Both the position numbers and the translations under genes were made by a program. The notes under the pieces are model-generated. The model did not search any database. It was not told the origin of the DNA and worked only from the letters and a program-made list of their open reading frames with translations. A stretch of DNA of 64,000 nt from the NCBI RefSeq assembly GCF_003334405.1, contig NZ_QOWM01000001.1; one strand, given 5' to 3'. Origin of the DNA: Escherichia coli (lineage in GTDB: Bacteria; Pseudomonadota; Gammaproteobacteria; Enterobacterales; Enterobacteriaceae). Below, piece after piece: positions 18,827 to 40,630 of the stretch (the stretch's first letter is position 1; each line of letters begins with the position of its first letter).

Positions 18827-22478
<3,652 letters not shown>

Positions 22479-32399: not shown

Positions 32400-35249
32400 T
32401 TGAAATACCTTGCTTCTTTTCGTACAACCCTGAAAGCCTCGCGCTACATGTTCAGAGCATTGGCGTTAGTGCTCTGGCTGTTGATTGCTTTTTCATCCGT
32501 TTTTTACATCGTTAATGCGTTACATCAGCGAGAATCGGAAATTCGTCAGGAATTTAATCTGAGTTCCGATCAGGCTCAGCGCTTTATTCAACGCACCTCT
32601 GATGTGATGAAAGAGCTGAAGTACATCGCCGAAAATCGCTTATCGGCAGAAAACGGTGTGCTTTCCCCGCGTGGACGAGAAACGCAGGCGGATGTGCCTG
32701 CGTTTGAACCGCTGTTTGCCGACTCCGATTGTTCCGCAATGAGTAACACCTGGCGAGGTTCTCTGGAGTCATTGGCGTGGTTTATGCGCTACTGGCGCGA
32801 TAATTTTTCTGCGGCTTACGATCTAAACCGGGTATTTTTAATCGGCAGCGATAACCTCTGCATGGCCAATTTCGGTCTGCGTGATATGCCAGTGGAACGC
32901 GATACCGCGTTGAAAGCTTTGCATGAACGCATCAATAAATATCGAAATGCACCACAAGATGATAGCGGCAGTAACCTCTACTGGATCAGCGAAGGTCCGC
33001 GCCCTGGCGTCGGGTATTTTTACGCGTTGACGCCAGTTTATCTGGCGAACCGGTTGCAGGCGCTTTTGGGTGTCGAGCAGACCATCCGGATGGAGAACTT
33101 TTTCTTACCGGGTACGTTGCCGATGGGGGTTACCATTCTTGATGAAAATGGTCATACCCTGATTTCGCTTACCGGACCAGAAAGTAAAATTAAGGGCGAT
33201 CCTCGCTGGATGCAGGAACGCTCCTGGTTTGGCTATACGGAAGGGTTCCGGGAGCTGGTGCTGAAGAAAAATCTGCCACCCTCATCGCTAAGCATCGTGT
33301 ATTCGGTGCCGGTTGATAAGGTGCTGGAACGCATTCGCATGTTGATCCTTAACGCAATTTTGCTGAATGTGCTTGCCGGAGCTGCATTGTTTACTCTCGC
33401 ACGGATGTACGAGCGACGTATTTTCATTCCGGCGGAAAGCGACGCCCTGCGACTGGAAGAACATGAGCAGTTCAATCGCAAGATTGTCGCCTCCGCGCCA
33501 GTGGGTATCTGCATTTTGCGTACCGCTGATGGCGTCAATATTTTAAGTAACGAACTGGCGCATACCTATCTCAATATGCTTACGCATGAGGACCGCCAAC
33601 GACTGACGCAAATTATCTGTGGGCAGCAGGTCAATTTTGTTGATGTCCTGACCAGCAACAATACCAATCTGCAAATCAGCTTCGTCCATTCGCGCTATCG
33701 TAATGAAAACGTGGCCATTTGTGTGCTGGTGGATGTTTCTTCGCGCGTGAAGATGGAAGAGTCGTTGCAGGAGATGGCACAAGCAGCGGAACAGGCGAGC
33801 CAGTCAAAATCGATGTTCCTTGCCACCGTCAGTCATGAGCTGCGAACGCCGCTGTATGGCATTATCGGTAACCTGGATCTGTTGCAAACCAAAGAGTTAC
33901 CGAAAGGCGTCGATCGGCTGGTGACGGCAATGAACAACTCTTCCAGCCTGTTGTTGAAAATTATCAGCGATATTCTCGATTTCTCGAAGATTGAATCGGA
34001 ACAGTTGAAGATCGAACCGCGTGAGTTTTCACCGCGTGAAGTGATGAACCACATCACCGCCAACTATTTACCGCTGGTGGTACGCAAGCAGTTAGGCTTG
34101 TACTGCTTTATTGAACCGGATGTGCCAGTGGCCTTAAATGGCGACCCGATGCGTTTACAGCAGGTCATCTCCAACCTGTTGAGTAACGCCATAAAATTCA
34201 CCGATACCGGCTGTATAGTTTTGCATGTTCGCGCGGATGGCGATTATCTCTCTATCCGTGTTCGCGATACCGGCGTGGGGATACCGGCGAAAGAAGTGGT
34301 GCGCTTGTTTGATCCCTTCTTCCAGGTCGGAACGGGCGTACAGCGTAATTTCCAGGGGACCGGTCTGGGTCTGGCGATTTGTGAAAAACTGATCAGCATG
34401 ATGGACGGCGATATCTCGGTAGATTCAGAACCGGGAATGGGCAGCCAGTTTACCGTGCGTATTCCGTTGTACGGCGCTCAGTACCCGCAGAAAAAAGGCG
34501 TGGAAGGGTTGAGTGGTAAACGCTGCTGGCTGGCGGTCCGCAATGCGTCGCTCTGTCAGTTCCTGGAAACCAGTTTGCAGCGCAGCGGCATCGTCGTTAC
34601 AACATACGAAGGGCAGGAACCGACTCCCGAAGATGTGTTGATCACTGACGAGGTAGTGAGTAAAAAATGGCAGGGCAGAGCGGTAGTGACCTTCTGTCGT
34701 CGCCATATTGGTATTCCGCTGGAGAAAGCGCCAGGGGAGTGGGTACACAGTGTGGCTGCTCCGCATGAGCTACCGGCATTGTTGGCGCGTATTTATTTGA
34801 TCGAGATGGAGAGCGACGATCCTGCTAACGCTCTGCCGTCAACGGACAAAGCGGTCAGCGATAATGACGATATGATGATTCTGGTCGTGGATGATCATCC
34901 GATTAACCGGCGTTTGCTGGCAGATCAGTTGGGATCGTTGGGCTATCAATGTAAAACCGCGAATGATGGCGTCGATGCGCTTAATGTACTTAGCAAGAAT
35001 CATATTGATATCGTGCTTAGCGACGTCAACATGCCAAATATGGATGGTTACCGCTTGACGCAACGCATTCGTCAGTTGGGACTGACGTTGCCGGTAATCG
35101 GAGTAACTGCTAATGCGTTGGCTGAAGAGAAGCAGCGGTGTCTGGAGTCCGGTATGGACAGCTGCCTGTCGAAGCCGGTAACGCTGGATGTGATAAAACA
35201 GACGCTGACGTTATATGCCGAGAGGGTCAGGAAATCGCGGGATTCGTAG
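32400..35249 (+). CDS. rcsC: hybrid sensor histidine kinase of the Rcs phosphorelay
   Basis: 949-aa ORF; H-box SHELRTPL; C-terminal receiver domain (VVDDHPINRRLL...). Confidence 0.95.
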   Translation: MKYLASFRTTLKASRYMFRALALVLWLLIAFSSVFYIVNALHQRESEIRQEFNLSSDQAQRFIQRTSDVMKELKYIAENRLSAENGVLSPRGRETQADVPAFEPLFADSDCSAMSNTWRGSLESLAWFMRYWRDNFSAAYDLNRVFLIGSDNLCMANFGLRDMPVERDTALKALHERINKYRNAPQDDSGSNLYWISEGPRPGVGYFYALTPVYLANRLQALLGVEQTIRMENFFLPGTLPMGVTILDENGHTLISLTGPESKIKGDPRWMQERSWFGYTEGFRELVLKKNLPPSSLSIVYSVPVDKVLERIRMLILNAILLNVLAGAALFTLARMYERRIFIPAESDALRLEEHEQFNRKIVASAPVGICILRTADGVNILSNELAHTYLNMLTHEDRQRLTQIICGQQVNFVDVLTSNNTNLQISFVHSRYRNENVAICVLVDVSSRVKMEESLQEMAQAAEQASQSKSMFLATVSHELRTPLYGIIGNLDLLQTKELPKGVDRLVTAMNNSSSLLLKIISDILDFSKIESEQLKIEPREFSPREVMNHITANYLPLVVRKQLGLYCFIEPDVPVALNGDPMRLQQVISNLLSNAIKFTDTGCIVLHVRADGDYLSIRVRDTGVGIPAKEVVRLFDPFFQVGTGVQRNFQGTGLGLAICEKLISMMDGDISVDSEPGMGSQFTVRIPLYGAQYPQKKGVEGLSGKRCWLAVRNASLCQFLETSLQRSGIVVTTYEGQEPTPEDVLITDEVVSKKWQGRAVVTFCRRHIGIPLEKAPGEWVHSVAAPHELPALLARIYLIEMESDDPANALPSTDKAVSDNDDMMILVVDDHPINRRLLADQLGSLGYQCKTANDGVDALNVLSKNHIDIVLSDVNMPNMDGYRLTQRIRQLGLTLPVIGVTANALAEEKQRCLESGMDSCLSKPVTLDVIKQTLTLYAERVRKSRDS

Positions 35250-35251
35250 GA

Positions 35252-35445
<194 letters not shown>

Positions 35446-36115: not shown

Positions 36116-38788
36116 CTACAGCAAGCTCTTGACATAACTGTCAATGTCGCTGATGTATTTTTCTATTCCTGGAACATCCTTCTCACGAATCAGATGTTCC
36201 AGCGTTTCACATAACTGCTTGCCGGGTACCAGATTTAGCATGGCAAATACGCCTTTAAGACGATGAGCCGTTTGGGCTAACGCAGCAAAGTCACTGGTTG
36301 CTGCTTCAGTATACAGCCTCTTAACATCATCCGGTACTGTGTCTACAAAGAGCGCATAATAGCCGCTGGCATGGAGTTGCGCATTTTCATCTCCGCCCAG
36401 AGGCGATTCTGTCACCTCTTCCTGCGCCAGTTGCACTTCAATTAATTGTAAGACCGCTTCCTGCATAGCGTTGCTCATATTGAAGTTGACGCACAATTGA
36501 CCAGGCCCAATTTCCCGTACGCCAGACTCATCATCGCTTAAAAGCAAGCCAGAGGCAGTAAGATTAGACGGATTATCCGTTAAAAAGATATCATAATCTT
36601 GACTAATTAATCTTTCATCGGGTGTGATACAGGTTGCACCCCAATTTTCTAACTGGCGAGTGACAATATTCCGAATTTCTGCCGAAGTAACATCCACCAT
36701 TACGCAGACATCATCCAGTAAACGCTCTTCTTCCTCTTCAACTTCCGGGTCAGCTGCGAGCATTTTGATATGCACAGAGTAGCGTGTACCAAGCCCATCC
36801 CGCGTTTTGATGTTTAAATGACCGCCCAGTTTACGTGCCAGTTGATCGCTCAGCCAGAATGCCAGCGGGTCCGCCTTGCCATAGCGATCGTTTTGGGTCT
36901 GGTTGATAAACGGGAAGTGCAAATTATCCATTTCATGAATACTTACGCCTTCTCCCGTGTCCAGAATGCGGAACGTCAGGCGGTCTTCGGAGGACTCATC
37001 CTGATCAACCTCAAGGGTGATTTTTCCCAATTGCGTTGAGGTCACGGCATATTGCATCAGTAGCAGCAAAATACGTCGTAAGGCATCGCGATCGCCGCGG
37101 CGCATATCGTGTGCTTTCAGATGATTGTTAATCAGCAGTTGCAGACCTTTACGCTTGATGGCAGGCAACACTGAAGGCACAACTTCATCAATTAAATCCT
37201 GCACGGAGAACAGCACCGTCTCACTTTTCCAGCTATCATCCGCAAGCATGTTCGCTAACTGTATTTCATCAACCAGCCGCACCAGCACATCTGCCTGATT
37301 CGCCAGTTGTTTGCTTTCCGGGGCGTTGAGTTTAGCCGCGCTCTCCGCCAGGGACTGTGCGGGTTCTTTCAGCGCATCGCCAATGTTTTTCATAAAGATC
37401 ATCCGCCCCTGCTGGTTTTTCTCATACAGACGCTGCGCCTGCTTGAGTTTCTTGTTTACCAGCACTTCGCGATCCTGATCGCGAATAATGAAAATTTGTG
37501 TGCGCGGCGCGACCTGGCTGCGGAACATGCGGATCTCATACAGCTCGTTATTGATCGTCGCCTGAATAATCCCCTGATGCTGTTCCGCCATGGTGGTGAT
37601 GTTTTGCAGATTCAAATGCGGCAGCAAATGATCGGCAATTTTGTTACTTATGACAGTGCGGTTCGATTCCTGATCGTGAACCAGCAGGCCGAGCGGCAGC
37701 AGTGAGACTATCTCTTCATTGATTGCCCGTAAAATGCGCAATTCGTTATTGACCGCCGTGCTGGGGACGTTTTCTGTACTGCGGCTGGAGAAATGGCGGA
37801 ATGTGGTATAGCCAAATAACGCCAGCGCCAGCAAACCGATGTTCAGCAGCAGTGGCAGCAGAATGTTTTGCAACGTATCCAGCAATAAGGTGCCATAAGG
37901 AACCTGCCAGACCAGGCGCATATCGGTAGAGTTGAGTGCCGAGGAGATTTCAATCTTCGTACTGTTAAAGTGGATACTGACGCTATCCGTCCCTTCTTTC
38001 TCATTATCATTGTTTCCCGTTGCCGTCGCGTCTGGCTCAAGGCGGAAACTGTCCAGCGGCATACCCGGTGGGATCAAATCATTAATCGGCAGATCAAAAG
38101 CCACGACCGTTGCCAGATGTCCTGGCTGGTTAAAGGTAGTACGCAATGTAAAGTAATGACCGTTCTGCCAGGCCAGGCGGCGCATGTTAGAAAAGCTTTC
38201 GCGTTCATCGAGGGCGTTGGCCTGTTGCAACATCTCTGCACGACGTGAATCAACAATGTCGCTGACGGTCGATTCTTTAAATCCGGAGGTGAGATCTTTA
38301 AGGGGTAGGGTTGAGATCAGCACCAGACTGTTATCCTGACCATTCAGGTAATACATCGACCACGGTACATTTTCTGCGCCCCACAATGTATCCAGATAAG
38401 TGGACATCCGCTGAGTCATCTCAAGCGTTGAGTTGTCGTGAGAGCCAAAGATTAACGCTTCCGTTTTGCGGCGTGGTTTCTCCAGATAGTAGACATCCTG
38501 TTTCAGGCGCGTCTCTTGTAAACCTTCGCCGGAGGAGGGGGAGGTCGTCGCGGCAATGTTGTCGTAGATCTGCCAGGTCACGTAACGCCAGTTATCGACG
38601 CGCTTTTGGATAGCATGGGTAATGTCGACAATCTGGTAACTTTTATCTTTCAGCCAGGCGTTAACGGCGCTTTGTACCATTACACCCATCGTCACCAGTA
38701 ACACAATGATCAACAGTAAAAAGAAGCGGGTAATGCTCCCCGGTAGGAGTGAAAAGCGGGTCGTGGCCGTTGTCTCTTTCTGACGCAT
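36116..38788 (-). CDS. rcsD: phosphotransfer intermediate protein RcsD (Hpt domain)
   Basis: 890-aa ORF 16 nt upstream of rcsB; N-terminal membrane anchor; C-terminal Hpt-like region. Confidence 0.93.
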   Translation of the reverse strand: MRQKETTATTRFSLLPGSITRFFLLLIIVLLVTMGVMVQSAVNAWLKDKSYQIVDITHAIQKRVDNWRYVTWQIYDNIAATTSPSSGEGLQETRLKQDVYYLEKPRRKTEALIFGSHDNSTLEMTQRMSTYLDTLWGAENVPWSMYYLNGQDNSLVLISTLPLKDLTSGFKESTVSDIVDSRRAEMLQQANALDERESFSNMRRLAWQNGHYFTLRTTFNQPGHLATVVAFDLPINDLIPPGMPLDSFRLEPDATATGNNDNEKEGTDSVSIHFNSTKIEISSALNSTDMRLVWQVPYGTLLLDTLQNILLPLLLNIGLLALALFGYTTFRHFSSRSTENVPSTAVNNELRILRAINEEIVSLLPLGLLVHDQESNRTVISNKIADHLLPHLNLQNITTMAEQHQGIIQATINNELYEIRMFRSQVAPRTQIFIIRDQDREVLVNKKLKQAQRLYEKNQQGRMIFMKNIGDALKEPAQSLAESAAKLNAPESKQLANQADVLVRLVDEIQLANMLADDSWKSETVLFSVQDLIDEVVPSVLPAIKRKGLQLLINNHLKAHDMRRGDRDALRRILLLLMQYAVTSTQLGKITLEVDQDESSEDRLTFRILDTGEGVSIHEMDNLHFPFINQTQNDRYGKADPLAFWLSDQLARKLGGHLNIKTRDGLGTRYSVHIKMLAADPEVEEEEERLLDDVCVMVDVTSAEIRNIVTRQLENWGATCITPDERLISQDYDIFLTDNPSNLTASGLLLSDDESGVREIGPGQLCVNFNMSNAMQEAVLQLIEVQLAQEEVTESPLGGDENAQLHASGYYALFVDTVPDDVKRLYTEAATSDFAALAQTAHRLKGVFAMLNLVPGKQLCETLEHLIREKDVPGIEKYISDIDSYVKSLL

Positions 38789-39099
38789 TCGTGTTTATGA
38801 CCTGTTAAAACTTCGCGAAGTGATAGGGCAGTATAAAGGGTACAGTGTGAAATTCCAGACTCTTACCTGATTGATGATTCTCTATTCTCCCGTGATATTT
38901 ATCATCCTGCATTGGGGGAAATAGATGTACAAGCGCCATTTTGCTGTACAAATAACCTACAAAAAGCCCAACAAAAATAATTGCAAATAAACAAAGATTG
39001 CTGGAAATTATGCGGATGTTAATTATTTGTGAAATAGTTAACAAGCGTTATAGTTTTTCTGTGGTAGCACAGAATAATGAAAAGTGTGTAAAGAAGGGT

Positions 39100-39192
39100 A
39101 AAAAAAACCGAATGCGAGGCATCCGGTTGAAATAGGGGTAAACAGACATTCAGAAATGAATGACGGTAATAAATAAAGTTAATGATGATAGC
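39100..39192 (-). ncRNA. micF: MicF antisense small RNA (divergent from ompC)
   Basis: 93-nt stretch whose reverse complement reads GCTATCATCATTAACTTTATTTATTACCGTCATTCATTTCTGAATGTCTGTTTACCCCTATTTCAACCGGATGCCTCGCATTCGG followed by T8 terminator. Confidence 0.9.
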
Positions 39193-39511
39193 GGGAGTTA
39201 TTCTAGTTGCGAGTGAAGGTTTTGTTTTGACATTCAGTGCTGTCAAATACTTAAGAATAAGTTATTGATTTTAACCTTGAATTATTATTGCTTGATGTTA
39301 GGTGCTTATTTCGCCATTCCGCAATAATCTTAAAAAGTTCCCTTGCATTTACATTTTGAAACATCTATAGCGATAAATGAAACATCTTAAAAGTTTTAGT
39401 ATCATATTCGTGTTGGATTATTCTGCATTTTTGGGGAGAATGGACTTGCCGACTGATTAATGAGGGTTAATCAGTATGCAGTGGCATAAAAAAGCAAATA
39501 AAGGCATATAA

Positions 39512-40630
<1,119 letters not shown>

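Follow-up and report, generated by a model that had tools for sequence, protein, structure and literature searches.

The window, by which we mean the whole 64-kb stretch of Escherichia coli DNA analyzed here, was scanned against the covariance models of 4227 Rfam families, and its top match was to MicF (RF00033) at 39193..39100 (−), with a score of 114.4 bits in comparison to a gathering threshold of 79 and an E-value of 2.8e-17. The match covers all model positions (1–94 of 94) and is not truncated. We note that the Rfam model carries one extra 5′ base relative to the 93-nt gene, hence 39193 rather than 39192, and that the 93-nt interval 39100–39192 is therefore the gene as curated. This interval, the minus-strand sequence of which is GCUAUCAUCAUUAACUUUAUUUAUUACCGUCAUUCAUUUCUGAAUGUCUGUUUACCCCUAUUUCAACCGGAUGCCUCGCAUUCGGUUUUUUUU, corresponds exactly to the ncRNA micF of MG1655 (b4439, 2313084–2313176), and the two are 100% identical over a 181-nt alignment that includes the promoter and terminator flanks. 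A sequence-only reading of this DNA had already assigned a 93-nt minus-strand segment to the MicF RNA, naming the Rfam covariance model and an alignment to known micF sequences as checks; both bear the assignment out, the former through a full-length match well above the family threshold, and the latter through complete identity to the curated K-12 gene. The features of the locus are collected in Table 1.

Table 1. Coordinates of micF, its parts, its neighbors and the putative control elements in the window.
Feature	Position	Strand	Details and basis
micF, 93-nt MicF small regulatory RNA	39100..39192	−	+1 = 39192, 3′ end = 39100; Rfam match and identity to MG1655
ompC (porin OmpC), divergent neighbor	39527..40630	+	367-aa ORF; named ompC in matching genomes
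rcsD, downstream neighbor on the micF strand	36116..38788	−	890-aa ORF; annotated as rcsD
Putative micF −10 hexamer TAGAAT	39200..39205	−	−13..−8; read from sequence and conservation
mar-box-like site ACAGCACTGAATGTCAAAA, presumed MarA/SoxS/Rob site	39225..39243	−	−51..−33, overlaps the weak −35
Two TGAAACATCT direct repeats, 21 nt apart	39357..39387	+	Repeat search; shared micF–ompC control region
MicF nt 1–33, 5′ antisense region with the published 13-nt seed (nt 1–13)	39160..39192	−	Fold, ompF pairing and conservation
MicF stem-loop 1, nt 26–51	39142..39167	−	MFE fold; core nt 31–36 pair with nt 41–46
MicF stem-loop 2, Rho-independent terminator, nt 65–87	39106..39128	−	Terminator scan and fold; 10-pair stem, GC-rich
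MicF U8 tail, nt 86–93	39100..39107	−	Read from sequence; terminator tail, presumed Hfq-binding 3′ end

The ATG of ompC at 39527 (+) is separated from the micF +1 by 334 nt, in agreement with the distance of about 335 bp that the earlier reading had given for this divergent pair, and 311 nt lie between the 3′ end of micF and the ATG of rcsD at 38788 (−). We consider it virtually certain that 39100–39192 (−) is the micF gene, running leftward and divergently from ompC, and encoding a 93-nt non-coding RNA that acts in trans on ompF. The word “antisense”, as applied to micF, refers to this action in trans on the ompF mRNA, and not to a cis-antisense relationship with the neighboring ompC.

In the PGAP record that we examined in detail, rcsD and ompC are listed and micF is unlabelled, and no feature lies beneath the match in any of ten sampled PGAP E. 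coli genomes, as anticipated by the suggestion that ORF-based annotation would miss this gene; the label is present only in the curated MG1655 record. The further suggestion that micF is the main non-coding gene of the window also stands, in that the only Rfam matches besides it are eight to the REP-derived naRNA4, no tRNA or tmRNA gene is found in the 64-kb window, and MG1655 has no other RNA gene annotated in the equivalent span. The naRNA4 matches (REP/BIME-derived, at the gathering threshold) are located at 47209–47743 (−), 35249–35439 (+), and 8194–8264 (+), where five tandem copies at a period of ~113 nt separate eco from mqo, two lie in the gap from rcsC to rcsB, and a single copy separates nrdA from nrdB. 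The eco–mqo REP array (47.2–47.8 kb) appears to be longer than that of MG1655 by one 113-nt unit, since the alignment blocks that overlap there cover 563 nt in the window in comparison to 450 nt in MG1655.

There is no difference between the window and MG1655 within micF, and the differences that surround the gene leave it untouched. These differences include 12 scattered SNPs over about 59 kb, as well as an uninterrupted yejO at 62046–62049, where MG1655 carries IS5K and the alignments on either side overlap by 4 nt; a yejO free of this insertion is the common state, with 4997 genomes covering the junction. Together, the state of yejO and the 12 SNPs show that the window comes from a close relative of K-12 that is not MG1655 itself. 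In addition, yfaS (alpha-2-macroglobulin family) lacks 3195 nt (1065 codons, in frame) at window position 22193/22194, corresponding to MG1655 2330083–2333277. The junction shows 2 nt of microhomology (CA), and a 474-aa ORF at 21054..22478 (+) reads through it and stops just short of yfaQ. When 5426 complete E. coli genomes were searched with a 601-nt query centered on this junction, no genome spanned it, and all of them had its two halves ~3.2 kb apart; the missing segment could be a strain-specific deletion, an assembly artifact, or an edit.

The 93-nt RNA folds with a minimum free energy (MFE) of −18.5 kcal mol–1, in comparison to −7.2 ± 2.0 kcal mol–1 for dinucleotide shuffles (z = −5.56; none of 200 shuffles as good). 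Nucleotides 1–25 are unpaired in the MFE fold, and nucleotides 26–33 form the lower part of stem-loop 1. A terminator scan, which is independent of the fold, calls the same hairpin at 39128..39106, comprising a 10-pair stem followed by a T run, such that the 3′ hairpin and U-tract described from the sequence are recovered by both approaches.

To place the locus in a wider context, we assembled a cross-species set through a pattern search for GCTATCATCATTANNTTNATTTATTACC, taking one genome per species, which yielded at least 120 loci in other Enterobacteriaceae; the loci listed come from Escherichia, Salmonella, Citrobacter, Enterobacter, Klebsiella, Kosakonia, Cedecea, Atlantibacter, Mangrovibacter, and other genera, and the 120 listed contain 100 distinct 96-mers. 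The gene order is strikingly stable: among the matches listed, a divergent ompC-like porin lies upstream of micF in all 112 testable loci, with the porin start codon 321–344 nt (median 328) from the micF +1, and rcsD follows downstream on the micF strand in 105 of 106. In a 101-sequence alignment of these listed matches, positions 1–35 of MicF are invariant or nearly so. The search pattern GCTATCATCATTANNTTNATTTATTACC fixes 25 of the first 28 nucleotides and the invariance there is thus partly built in, but the near-invariance extends to positions that the pattern leaves free, namely, 14, 15, 18, and 29–35. Variation is seen in the loop of stem-loop 1, in the linker, and in the terminator, while the T run is kept in all homologues.

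This variation is structured by base pairing. Across the 101 sequences, 98.2% of the cells are paired for the MicF structure, in comparison to 20–38% when the partners are slid by 1–3 columns, and seven pairs show double-sided changes against 2.3 ± 1.2 in shuffles (none of 500 as high). In the terminator stem, where 97% of the cells are paired, six of the 10 pairs show compensatory changes, one of them from G-C to A-U in 32 sequences. Five of the six pairs in the core of stem-loop 1 are invariant, and the sixth alternates between AU, GU, and GC; as this stem-loop is nearly invariant, covariation speaks neither for nor against it.

Upstream of micF, the 19-nt mar-box-like site ACAGCACTGAATGTCAAAA has one mismatch to the consensus AYNGCACNNWNNRYYAAAY. 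A scan of the window with the mar-box pattern gave four matches where 1.4 were expected, and since five of 100 shuffles also gave at least four, the pattern alone is not distinctive. In 119 upstream sequences, however, the −10 element (as TAnAAT) and the mar-box (as GCAC and AAA) stand out as footprints, with a mean identity of 0.85 in comparison to 0.51–0.57 in the spacer, and the GCAC and AAA elements are at least 99% conserved. This footprint supports the presence of a micF promoter and an activator site beyond what the mar-box pattern alone establishes, with both sites being putative. A sigma-70 consensus scan called no minus-strand promoter upstream of micF, because the −35 position is a poor match; the missing call fits an activator-dependent promoter, and proves nothing. 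The direct repeats TGAAACATCT further upstream are ones that we take to resemble the OmpR boxes of the ompC promoter. Activation of micF by Rob, MarA, and SoxS, and its repression by H-NS and Lrp, have been described (PMC11676804).

We note two further repeats on the ompC side of this region. The ompC leader contains a 14-nt inverted repeat at 39447–39480, TGCCGACTGATTAA / TTAATCAGTATGCA, that is 86% complementary, as well as a direct repeat, GAGGGTTAAT, that occurs at 39462–39471 and again at 39514–39523 (+), where the second copy provides the ompC Shine-Dalgarno sequence. These repeats probably correspond to the predicted leader hairpin and the MicC target region.

MicF has been described as a 93-nt, Hfq-dependent repressor of OmpF with a 13-nt 5′ seed (PMC11676804). 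As ompF is absent from the window, its 5′ region was taken from MG1655, and pairing was tested with the 33-nt 5′ region of MicF in place of the full-length RNA. Nucleotides 1–33 form 25 base pairs with positions −17..+11 of the ompF mRNA at −27.1 kcal mol–1, in a duplex that spans both the AUG and the Shine-Dalgarno sequence GAGGG. In 1000 shuffles of this 33-nt region, this energy is never reached against ompF, with the shuffles averaging −12.4 kcal mol–1 and the best of them attaining −23.1 kcal mol–1. With full-length MicF and ompF −110..+60, the duplex energy is not significant (66 of 500 shuffles were as good), and this test is non-discriminating, since random sequences are scored too favorably through long interior loops.

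As a measure of the background within the window, three of 2556 100-nt tiles (both strands) match the ompF energy, two of which are the complement of micF itself. The third, at 45216..45172 (−), lies on the strand antisense to yojI, and at −29 kcal mol–1 is the best non-self pairing site for MicF in the window. We rejected this site as a MicF target, as it is antisense to yojI and requires a 10-nt interior loop, and judged the pairing to be due to chance.

The same seed has been described to act on the lrp, cpxR, phoE, oppA, obgE, and seqA mRNAs as well (PMC11676804). In the case of lrp, nucleotides 1–13 of MicF pair contiguously across the start codon, in agreement with the published 13-nt seed (PMC11676804). 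With lrp, the duplex energy of the seed region is not significantly better than that of shuffles (52 of 1000 were as good), which is a crude statistic, and one that cannot validate a short seed such as that of the MicF–lrp pair.

Turning to the population of E. coli itself, 5375 of 5426 complete genomes have the 93-nt micF at ≥95% identity, in every case on the chromosome, with no megablast match in the remaining 51. Most of a 1-kb rcsD–micF–ompC segment is missing from 58 of the complete genomes, as in strain LB19b, where this segment matches only the first 60 nt of ompC; the genomes without the micF/ompC region are natural losses or rearrangements. In the blood isolate 4848, IS1 is inserted in the ompC leader at a position equivalent to window 39469/39470 (left breakpoint), which leaves 58 nt between the insertion and the downstream ompC start codon and places it 277 nt upstream of the micF +1. 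While micF is intact in this clinical isolate, the insertion would probably silence or alter the expression of ompC.

Taking these observations into account, we propose that transcription of micF probably starts at a promoter whose −10 (TAGAAT) is good but whose −35 is poor, and that the latter would make the promoter activator-dependent, through the mar-box for MarA/SoxS/Rob and through OmpR sites that would be shared with ompC. Transcription would end at the intrinsic terminator, leaving a free 5′ end that is predicted to pair with the ribosome-binding site and start codon in the mRNA of ompF, a gene located elsewhere on the chromosome. Hfq, which according to the literature binds at the U-rich 3′ end of MicF (PMC11676804), would help this pairing, and the resulting block of ompF translation initiation would lower OmpF under high osmolarity, oxidative, antibiotic, and other stresses. 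Among these steps, the one that comes directly from our analysis is that MicF, through its free 5′ end, occludes the ompF ribosome-binding site, with the involvement of Hfq, the regulators, and the wider target set being taken from the literature. More broadly, our analysis demonstrates the identity, structure, complementarity, conservation, and synteny of micF, while its expression, Hfq dependence, regulators, and physiological role would follow from the literature on the identical K-12 RNA.

It could be argued that the segment acts mainly in cis on its neighbors, for instance as a terminator or leader with an insulating or tuning effect on rcsD transcription, or as part of the control DNA upstream of ompC. 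The location of rcsD on the same strand 311 nt downstream, in an order that is kept in 105 of 106 loci among the matches listed, would be compatible with such a role, and the tightly held micF–ompC spacing of 321–344 nt in these matches fits shared control DNA. However, a role in cis leaves unexplained the 25-pair complementarity to the ompF ribosome-binding site, the near-invariance of the unstructured 5′ 35 nucleotides of MicF, and the conserved −10 and activator site just upstream of the gene. Furthermore, the strong terminator with its U8 tail argues for a discrete short transcript, and the literature shows repression of OmpF in trans (PMC11676804). We therefore consider it very improbable that the segment is mainly cis-acting, although a contribution in cis could coexist with the trans role of micF.

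Two open reading frames overlap the gene, one of 75 aa at 39019..39246 (−) and one of 45 aa at 38998..39135 (+), raising the question of whether the segment belongs instead to a small protein gene, in particular the 75-aa frame, which begins with TTG. Both frames are purely mechanical, with TTG starts, and both were rejected on account of the 1- and 2-nt indels between species in the linker and loop (alignment columns 54, 56–57, 64–65, and 80–82), which break any frame. In addition, the substitutions track base pairing rather than codon periodicity, and no CDS is annotated at micF in either the MG1655 or the PGAP records, such that the chance of the 75-aa frame accounting for the segment is negligible. 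We assign a similarly minute probability to the segment resembling micF by chance, or being a relic of it that has decayed and lost its function; all that speaks for this reading is that a sequence, in general, is no proof of expression. This reading is effectively refuted by the full-length model match (E = 2.8e-17), the identity to the experimentally studied K-12 gene, the retention of the gene at ≥95% identity in 99% of the 5426 E. coli genomes, and the preservation of both its structure and its promoter footprints across genera. Jointly, the three alternatives (action only in cis, a small protein gene, and chance or decay) command just a sliver of the probability, with the trans-acting micF gene being the reading that we retain.

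The closest known system is the MicF of E. coli K-12 (b4439, RF00033), with which the RNA described here shares its length (93 nt), strand, position between ompC and rcsD, fold, and complementarity to ompF. According to the literature, MicC, MicA, RybB, and OmrA/B share with MicF the Hfq-dependent repression of porin mRNAs in trans through a free 5′ seed that pairs near the ribosome-binding site, and likewise end in a Rho-independent terminator whose U tail serves Hfq. They differ in belonging to other families, with other sequences, loci, and targets, with MicC repressing ompC and not ompF. Of these porin sRNA families, only MicF is found in the window at the Rfam gathering thresholds.

The micF locus described here is thus an already known gene, base for base, with no new biology. 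We have considered whether constraint beyond ompF repression may act on micF, in the form of an unrecognized conserved target or an obligatory bidirectional promoter that would couple the output of micF and ompC, since the invariance of the first 35 nucleotides across about 100 species, only partly built in by the search pattern, and the 321–344 nt spacing are not fully explained by the seed and the ompF duplex; we regard this as a long shot. The value of the finding lies in correct annotation only: protein-centered pipelines leave micF unlabelled, and a covariance-model pass is needed to recover it. MicF was one of the first chromosomally encoded antisense regulatory RNAs to be described, and is a standard example of post-transcriptional porin control tied to antibiotic and stress tolerance.
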